Below are positions 8,404 through 8,530 of a stretch of 64,000 nucleotides of DNA, piece after piece (positions within the stretch are counted from its first letter, which is position 1; every line of letters starts with the position of its first letter). The DNA is taken from IMG/VR virus record IMGVR_UViG_3300044547_000928, positions 3,862 through 67,861 of that record; one strand, given 5' to 3'. Position numbers and translations under genes: made by a program. Source of the DNA: a virus. The notes under the pieces were generated by a model that was given only the letters and a program-made list of their open reading frames with translations, was not told the origin of the DNA and made no database searches.

Positions 8404-8432
8404 TTGACAAGACCGCAATAAAATGATATAAT
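8404..8432 (+). promoter_or_regulatory. Perfect consensus promoter with no downstream ORF
   Basis: TTGACA-17-TATAAT with TG extension, right after hairpin 8370-8403. Confidence 0.9.
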
Positions 8433-8438
8433 TGTAAC

Positions 8439-8530
8439 ACTACTCGCTTGAGCCCCTTACCCCCTTTCGGGGCTCGCGGTAGAGGTGGGGGGCTGCTTGC
8501 TTTCCTTTCGCAAGCGCCCCCACCGACCAT
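8439..8530 (+). ncRNA. Candidate two-hairpin sRNA with C-rich and anti-SD loops
   Basis: GAGCCCC[TTACCCCCTTTC]GGGGCTC and GGTGGGGG..GCTTGC[TTTCCTTTC]GCAAGC.CCCCCACC. Confidence 0.62.

Follow-up and report, generated by a model that had tools for sequence, protein, structure and literature searches.

Small RNAs that carry anti-Shine-Dalgarno (anti-SD) sequences in hairpin loops are known from bacterial chromosomes, where they include the cuckoo/CcsR RNAs, 6C and the staphylococcal UCCC class. In Staphylococcus aureus, an anti-SD motif in the 3' UTR of the icaR mRNA reportedly pairs with the 5' SD sequence. The c4 antisense RNA of phages P1 and P7 is part of an immunity system and is excised from the leader of the operon that it targets. 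The put RNAs of phage HK022 act in cis on RNA polymerase; each of the two put sites of the genome is located behind an early promoter and forms two stem-loops with one unpaired base between them. The CcsR RNAs, as described in the excerpt of PMC8034643, have an anti-SD loop on each of their two hairpins and are derived from 5' or 3' UTRs, and 6C/B11 is described in the excerpt of PMC6486639 as an sRNA of Actinobacteria.

Here, a two-hairpin RNA element is described that is located in a 64-kb stretch (the window) of one 67,861-base virus record. Its only meaningful Rfam resemblance, at relaxed thresholds, is to CcsR1 (RF02791), where the full model (1-83) matches 8439-8528 with 25.3 bits, compared with a gathering score of 65.3. 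The full-text literature search returned no described lytic phage carrying an anti-SD-loop RNA matched to its own ribosome-binding sites (RBSs).

The promoter and the two-hairpin RNA

The DNA originates from an uncultured lake siphovirus of about 68 kb that is kin to the actinobacteriophages. The genome codes for terminase, portal and major capsid proteins, the last sharing about 50% identity with its counterparts in Brevibacterium phage Cantare and in Gordonia phages. At least 0.91 of the words sampled from 6000-12000 are present in 16 lake-water DNA runs, and 0.05-0.12 of them in four RNA-labelled runs. The left 17 kb, approximately, is densely packed with small plus-strand genes, each behind a TTGCnA-17-TGnTATAAT promoter; there are many intergenic hairpins across this early region, and a hairpin followed by a promoter is the rule at the gene junctions of this phage. 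In the window, no tRNA genes were found and no RNA reaches its Rfam gathering score, and a blastn search of 7900-9200 against 50,697 phage records gave no match. The neighbouring proteins of 28, 125, 140 and 109 residues have no Pfam family, the 125-residue protein being acidic as judged by eye; the proteins of 140, 144 and 164 residues have no match in PHROGs, and a Pfam scan of 10 further proteins gave no clue to the host. Among the early genes are those for a DUF932 protein (3657-4697, E 4.8e-34) and a KTSC-domain protein (9543-9794, E 4e-12). The plus-strand gene at 60550-62049 codes for a 499-residue protein of the Pfam family Trp_halogenase (E 3e-91), which is unusual in a tailed phage.

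Positions 1-20000 contain 46 promoter-like sites, compared with 20.2 ± 3.9 in shuffled sequences. The site at the head of the element (Table 1) is the only one of the 46 that scores 12/12, and TTGACA-N16-18-TATAAT is present as a single copy when both strands of the whole window are considered (expected 0.05; at least one copy in 5 of 100 shuffles), so that the description of this site as the only perfect-consensus promoter, given in the original prediction, is borne out. Counting seven bases from the -10 hexamer, transcription would start at A8439, and in all seven relatives the stem of hairpin 1 starts 8 nt past this hexamer. The RNA at 8439-8524 is 86 nt long and folds into two hairpins joined by a single-base linker (A8483), with a minimum free energy of -49 kcal/mol (z -5.18), which is equalled in none of 200 shuffles.

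Table 1. Features of the element, its surroundings and the hairpins with related loops.
Feature	Positions	Strand	Details
Extended sigma-70-type promoter, perfect	8404-8432	+	-35 TTGACA 8404-8409; spacer 17 nt; TG 8424-8425; -10 TATAAT 8427-8432; kept in all 7 distinct relatives
Hairpin 1	8440-8482	+	Stem from +2 of the inferred transcript; 12-nt loop 8457-8468, UUACCCCCUUUC
Hairpin 2	8484-8524	+	About 15 bp with one bulge; 9-nt loop 8501-8509, UUUCCUUUC; 5 compensatory pairs
Possible small ORF, uncertain	8558-8671	+	37 codons; ATT start behind GAGGG; hydrophobic N-terminus, basic tail; overlaps next promoter
Next promoter	8640-8668	+	TTGCTA, 17 nt, TG, TATAAT; serves the 28-aa (8701-8787) and 125-aa (8784-9161) genes
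Hairpin 3	9169-9204	+	3' end of 125-aa gene; 12-bp stem; loop UUAUUUCCUUUC; no U-tract; z -6.27
Hairpin A'	3249-3275	+	Behind gene 2965-3240; loop CUUAAUCUCCUUUGU contains AAUCUCCUUU; apical UCUCCU 3260-3265
Hairpin B'	3283-3324	+	Hairpin to 3319; 13-bp stem; loop UUACCCCCGUU; then UUUUU; canonical intrinsic terminator
Terminal hairpin of upstream 140-aa gene (7937-8359)	8370-8403	+	Ends one base before the -35 hexamer; z -5.76

Relatives were sampled in two ways. An IMG/VR protein search with the upstream 140-aa gene gave seven loci (L001-L007), of which the closest two, L001 (94% protein identity) and L002 (61%), have the promoter and both hairpins. In L003-L007 (31-41% identity of the neighbour protein) no element was seen by eye and there was no match to the R1 model. 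A gapped loop-based pattern returned 14 metagenome stretches, six of them true homologues; the other eight, having neither the promoter nor the hairpins, were judged to be chance matches. The distinct versions are seven, namely the window itself (W), L001, L002, L012, L013 (identical to L021), L015 and L023. A pattern requiring CCCCCTTTC and CCTTTC was used to retrieve five of the seven relatives, and in these the loop conservation is selected for; the only independent witnesses of loop conservation are L001 and L002, because these were found by protein. A promoter-only pattern and a pattern for the RNA at 6912-7190 returned only the same two contigs from IMG/VR. A 20.3-bit match of R1 at 4610-4703 of L002 was set aside, as it consists of the orthologue of hairpin 3 and an unrelated second hairpin.

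The same two hairpins with the 1-nt linker are found in all six sequences tested, including the most distant relative, with z scores from -4.85 to -6.23 and no match among 200 shuffles for any of them. When the six close versions are compared, 5 of the 28 predicted pairs have compensatory double changes (for example GGUG/CACC to GGCA/UGCC, G-C to A-U and UU/AA to GG/UC), and none is broken. In L002, both stems are rewritten (GAGGC/GCCUC and GGUAGGGGCUCUGA/UCGGAGCCCCUACC), with the fold and the 1-nt linker kept, and the loops, being UCCCCCUUUC and UAUUCCUUUC, end as they do in the window. In all seven distinct relatives both loops end in CCUUUC and the stems vary by compensatory substitutions. 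In an alignment that takes in two weak extra hits and that, having been fitted to the model under test, leans towards this model, 98.3% of 241 cells pair, compared with 81.8% after shuffling and 40-48% after sliding. These comparisons support the view that the loops are the constrained part of the element, with the stems free to change. Because both loops, at this locus and at 3249-3319, are kept in relatives with differing stems, the observation exceeds chance. Judged from the sequences, region 8439-8524 is very probably a conserved structured RNA with functional loops; the fold scores and the covariation agree with the gene-less, promoter-led two-hairpin RNA of the original prediction in so far as a conserved structured non-coding element is concerned.

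The 3' end is less simple. Hairpin 2 is followed by GACCAUUCAAC, and its tails in the relatives are likewise U-poor, lacking the U-tract of a canonical terminator. Hairpin 2 is absent from the terminator scan of the window, in which loops were limited to 3-8 nt (hairpin B', with an 11-nt loop, is missing from the list for that reason). Without a U-tract behind hairpin 2, the canonical terminator rule does not call for a discrete short RNA. Four of the seven versions, counting the window, have a small ORF in the interval from hairpin 2 to the next promoter; its counterparts in L015 and L023 start with ATT and the one in L002 with ATG behind AAGGAGG. It is absent from L001, L012 and L013/L021, in which the next promoter is approximately 30 nt past hairpin 2. 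Where the ORF is present, G-rich SD-like tracts (GAGGGAG, GGGGAG, AAGGAGG) follow hairpin 2, and the three differences between L015 and L023 inside the ORF are all synonymous. The ORF has no promoter of its own, so that, if real, it needs read-through from 8404-8432. The original prediction of no SD-led ORF before the next promoter is therefore correct for canonical start codons but not for this ATT frame behind GAGGG, which has counterparts in three relatives. Similarly, a gene-less stand-alone sRNA is in agreement with the promoter and the conserved fold, but not with the lack of a U-tract and the small ORF in four of seven versions. As judged by eye, the product of a 28-codon plus-strand ORF at 7769-7855, behind GGAGAGGGG, is hydrophobic and has a KKNK tail, which makes it similar in type to the peptide of the possible ORF.

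In the RNA-labelled runs, for which only contigs were used, none of the listed pieces covers 8440-8530, which says nothing on a discrete RNA. The X19 bins 8178-8511 and 8512-8845 have values of 7.55 and 0.86 (RNA contigs, without a DNA run beside them). Two RNA contigs (X19 record 19, and X20 record 27, which has a loose end) break off within the promoter, 13-20 nt beyond the hairpin that ends the 140-aa gene. A separate observation concerns 6912-7190 on the plus strand, an ORF-less stretch behind the promoter at 6883-6911 which has the appearance of a large structured RNA (z -3.83, a closing helix of about 29 bp, no credible Rfam match). Its identity is 97-99% in L012, L001 and L015 and 89% in the L002 contig, where the 140-aa neighbour is only 61% identical. 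In the freshwater metatranscriptome X19 its bin has a mean word depth of 839 (1919.6 at 6990), compared with at most 21 in the other bins of 2500-12500, and the contig starts at 6958 and 6972 adjoin adapter letters.

Hairpins with related loops elsewhere in the early region

The pair at 3249-3324 had been described as having both loop types of the element, but with their order swapped and on unrelated stems, and the folds of both loci show this to be correct. The pair at 3249-3319 has a z score of -5.56 and keeps AAUCUCCUUU and yACCCCC on unrelated stems. Hairpin A' is kept in the two relatives L026 and L027 with a differing stem. The loop of hairpin B' is UCACCCCCAUU in L026 and UUCACCCCCGUUU, on an unrelated stem, in L027, where both stems of the pair are unrelated to those of the window and the loops are GUUUAAUCUCCUUUAGA and UUCACCCCCGUUU. 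The proposal of two copies of one RNA holds in that both loci have conserved loops, but the loci are not equivalent sRNA genes, as 8439-8524 is a transcript 5' end behind a promoter and 3249-3319 is the promoterless 3' end of gene 2965-3240, with hairpin B' being its U-tract terminator. The proposal had also missed a third CCUUUC-loop hairpin, hairpin 3. This hairpin is kept in five relatives with compensatory stem changes (C-G to U-A, A-U to G-C) and a constant CCUUUC loop; the L002 contig has in its place a different stem, the loop of which is CUAUUCCUUUCU.

The shared word TTACCCCC alone is within chance, since its 3 copies compare with 1.09 expected and at least 3 are found in 13 of 100 shuffles. 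Of the seven sense-strand CCTTTC words of the 67.9-kb genome, three are in strong hairpin loops, all within 750 nt, and a fourth is in the loop of a weak 5-bp hairpin, whereas none of the 13 words on the other strand is in a strong hairpin loop. In each of six relatives, 3 of the 3-5 CCTTTC words are in such loops. The terminal hairpin at 8370-8403 has a conserved loop, ACGAGAAGUG, on a stem that covaries or is rewritten in the relatives (GACGGGGUGGGU versus GGUGGGGUAGAG); a conserved loop on a variable stem is therefore a trait that is not confined to pyrimidine loops.

The early region contains further non-coding elements. Repeated modules are found between early genes at 3329-3500, 6378-6540 and 9205-9385, with partial copies near 10220-10300, 11215-11300 and 11975-12030. 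They share CCAAGGGAAACGG, ACCATATTCTC and GGAGAGGGG, the last with 5 copies in the window, as well as the palindrome GTGATATATCA(C/G), which also forms a hairpin at 17340-17368; from its sequence, this palindrome may be the operator of a phage regulator. Strong hairpins of 14-18 bp that differ in their stems, at 7683-7714, 9802-9833, 10573-10604, 10889-10924, 11170-11201, 11735-11770, 16046-16076 and 17092-17134, have the -35 hexamer (TTGCAA/TTGCGA) of the next promoter enclosed in the loop. Most of them have an A-tract before them and not a U-tract after them, and on the minus strand they are canonical terminators. Rfam searches of 3200-3660 and 6860-7260 at relaxed thresholds gave only implausible matches.

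Loop complementarity and possible functions

The early genes (395-15244) have two classes of RBS, and the late genes (21000-64000) mostly have GGAGG(T). Class 1, ACAAAGGAGAA, is found at 11 genes (395 to 8701, and 10966), eight of which have a near-identical 20-nt context, and class 2, CGAAAGGnAA, is found at 11 genes (2965, and 9543 to 15107); the hairpin cluster 8440-9204 is located where one early block borders on the other. The GAAAGG of class 2 is complementary to CCUUUC. The loop of hairpin 2 is a perfect 9-nt complement of the site at 10365, that of hairpin 3 is a perfect 10-nt complement of the site at 15107, and that of hairpin A' is complementary over 10 nt to eight class-1 sites. 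The length of the complement is equalled by composition-matched shuffled loops in 39 (A'), 44 (hairpin 3), 180 (hairpin 2) and 455 (hairpin 1) of 2000 cases, and for the B' loop 1661 of 2000 shuffles are as good, which is the chance level. The loop-to-RBS complementarity is only modestly above composition-matched chance. A duplex-energy target search over 1-22000 has RBSs and GGAGAGGGG motifs as its top matches, whose energies do not improve on those of 10 shuffled versions of each loop. The constancy of CCUUUC across the relatives offers no loop-target covariation. The C-rich ACCCCC loops fit every RBS class poorly; their possible G-rich partners are the GGAGAGGGG copies, for which no covariation is shown. 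Pairing of the UUACCCCCGUU loop with the GCGGGGGC tract at 3431 was rejected, because the tract is replaced in L026 with the C-run of the loop kept, such that there is no covariation.

A second resemblance concerns the ribosome itself. The 16S rRNA 3' tail is GAUCACCUCCUUUCU in several bacteria according to the excerpt of PMC6288834, although that of the phage host may differ. CCUUUC has its match in the tail, and of 11 positions of the printed sequence, 9 agree with the loop of hairpin 1. By this comparison the hairpin loops appear to be near copies of the printed tail.

It is possible, and we tentatively prefer this reading while giving it somewhat less than even confidence, that the loops mask RBSs by base-pairing and in this way tune the early genes of the phage. 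The RNA would be made from the strongest early promoter, starting about 1 base before hairpin 1, and would accumulate as a compact short RNA with a hairpin at each end, in which the only unpaired parts are two all-pyrimidine loops ending in CCUUUC. These loops could pair with the GAAAGG-type RBSs of the second early block (9543-15107), on other phage (or host) mRNAs, and possibly also with the downstream message of the RNA itself. Pairing would keep the 30S subunit off an RBS, and one temporal class of genes would be translated less. At 9169-9204 and 3249-3319, the like loops of the 3'-end hairpins may do the same job from mRNA tails.

That the element is instead a protein-coding stretch, translated from one of the ORFs that run across the hairpins, is almost certainly not the case. 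Frames are open there at 8448-8591 (47 aa), at 8485-8613 (42 aa) and, on the minus strand, at 8345-8530 (61 aa), but none of them has an RBS and they share only the identity that is forced by the nucleotides. The original prediction had named a conserved peptide as evidence against it; across the hairpins the frames are not kept in frame or in sequence in L002, which has no sense ORF of at least 20 aa across the element, and the minus-strand frame is cut in the relatives to shorter ORFs with other start points. The substitutions are, moreover, compensatory for RNA pairing. A rather unlikely explanation is that of a purely cis-acting 5' leader, without a free sRNA, in which the hairpin at +2 would shield a long mRNA from 5'-end-dependent decay and the loops, should they have a role, would mask only the RBS of the small hydrophobic ORF or operon just downstream. 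Such a leader would be comparable to the structured ones on mRNAs for small toxic peptides, or to the c4 RNA of P1. The explanation agrees with the fixed distance of 8 nt between the -10 hexamer and the stem in all relatives (the start being inferred), with the missing U-tract of hairpin 2, and with the hydrophobic-then-basic frame that, in W, L015, L023 and L002, has SD-like tracts and no promoter of its own. However, L001, L012 and L013/L021 keep the promoter and the hairpins and lack the ORF, the following gene differs among the relatives, and the ORF has no canonical start codon in three of four cases; the 3'-end hairpins with the same loops (9169 and 3249-3319) are also not explained by a role as 5' stabiliser.

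To about the same degree, we regard it as improbable that the loops bind a phage or host factor, or that the RNA modifies RNA polymerase in cis; in the polymerase variant, transcription from 8404-8432 would run through the downstream hairpins. The boxB RNA is such a site for lambda N, and nutR follows cro. Here also, two hairpins with a 1-nt linker are right behind the strongest early promoter, a second pair is behind the first gene of another unit, as nutR is after cro, and the many intergenic hairpins of the early region would need reading through. Conserved loops over covarying stems are what is expected for a sequence-specific loop binder, which would also account for the ACCCCC loops that match no RBS. 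Against this, no candidate binder was found among the neighbouring proteins scanned against Pfam and PHROGs, hairpin B' is itself a U-tract terminator, and it would be left unexplained why the loops are the complement of the phage's own RBSs. If these were ordinary end or insulator hairpins without a loop function, the loops would be shared because shuffled promoter/terminator cassettes have a common origin and because loops of a purine-rich coding strand are generally biased towards pyrimidines. This is distinctly unlikely, even though hairpin-then-promoter is the rule at the junctions, the loop of 8370-8403 is conserved yet unrelated to any RBS, the shuffle tests are weak and TTACCCCC alone is within chance. 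At three loci the loops are kept and the stems are fully rewritten, down to 61% protein identity; neutral drift would do the opposite. There is also nothing upstream for such a hairpin to end, hairpin 1 being at +2 and the upstream gene having a hairpin of its own. Highly unlikely, finally, is that the loops are true copies of the 16S rRNA 3' tail, placed several times on mRNA tails and on very stable RNAs from the strongest promoter of the phage, as decoys for its recognisers. These could be the host SD sequences in bulk, resulting in an RNA-only host shut-off, or a host anti-phage ribonuclease that cuts the anti-SD, such as a UCCUU-cutting MazF-type toxin; toxins of this type disable ribosomes by cutting the anti-SD.

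Comparison with known systems

The cuckoo/CcsR1-4 RNAs of Alphaproteobacteria, in the excerpted description, likewise have two hairpins with anti-SD loops and likewise 5' and 3' locations, which here correspond to the promoter-led RNA and the 3'-end hairpins. The CcsR loops given there are CCUCCUCCC, whereas those of the phage are CCUUUC/ACCCCCUUUC (UUACCCCCUUUC and UUUCCUUUC). The CcsR context (CIN1) has a DUF1127 gene on an alphaproteobacterial chromosome, whereas near the phage element there is no DUF1127 gene, its flanking proteins P0001-P0004 have no Pfam family, and the element is carried by a relative of actinobacteriophages. The likeness to CcsR is of design, not of descent. With 6C, as far as it is covered by the excerpt, the element has in common that it is a small RNA with C-rich hairpin loops, which in 6C bind mRNA, that the probable host phylum is the same, and that the loop of hairpin 1 has a run of five C. 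However, 6C is not among the six Rfam matches at E up to 10 for 8360-9260, the loops of hairpins 2 and 3 are U-rich with only two adjacent C, and the element is phage-borne.

The likeness to icaR is that of an anti-SD motif on an mRNA 3'-end structure, as seen at 9169-9204 and 3249-3275. In the phage, unlike in icaR, the motif recurs in the hairpin loops of several loci, one of which is a promoter-proximal RNA, and the pairing is putative. As with c4, a phage RNA from an operon leader has exposed stretches that are complementary to a downstream ribosome-binding region, but c4 has one specific target and the phage loops match a generic RBS class. The put RNAs are comparable in outline only, a pair of hairpins joined by a 1-nt linker being located in both cases behind an early promoter; put has no anti-SD loops, there is no sequence likeness to compare, and antitermination by the phage RNA would be hypothetical.

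The best reading is that the element is built like the cuckoo/CcsR and 6C sRNAs and is a member of neither. For comparable control of early genes, phage T4 uses the proteins RegB and RegA. If the masking of RBSs by the loops is true, the present phage splits its early genes into two RBS classes and controls one of them by RNA alone, in parallel to what T4 achieves with these proteins.
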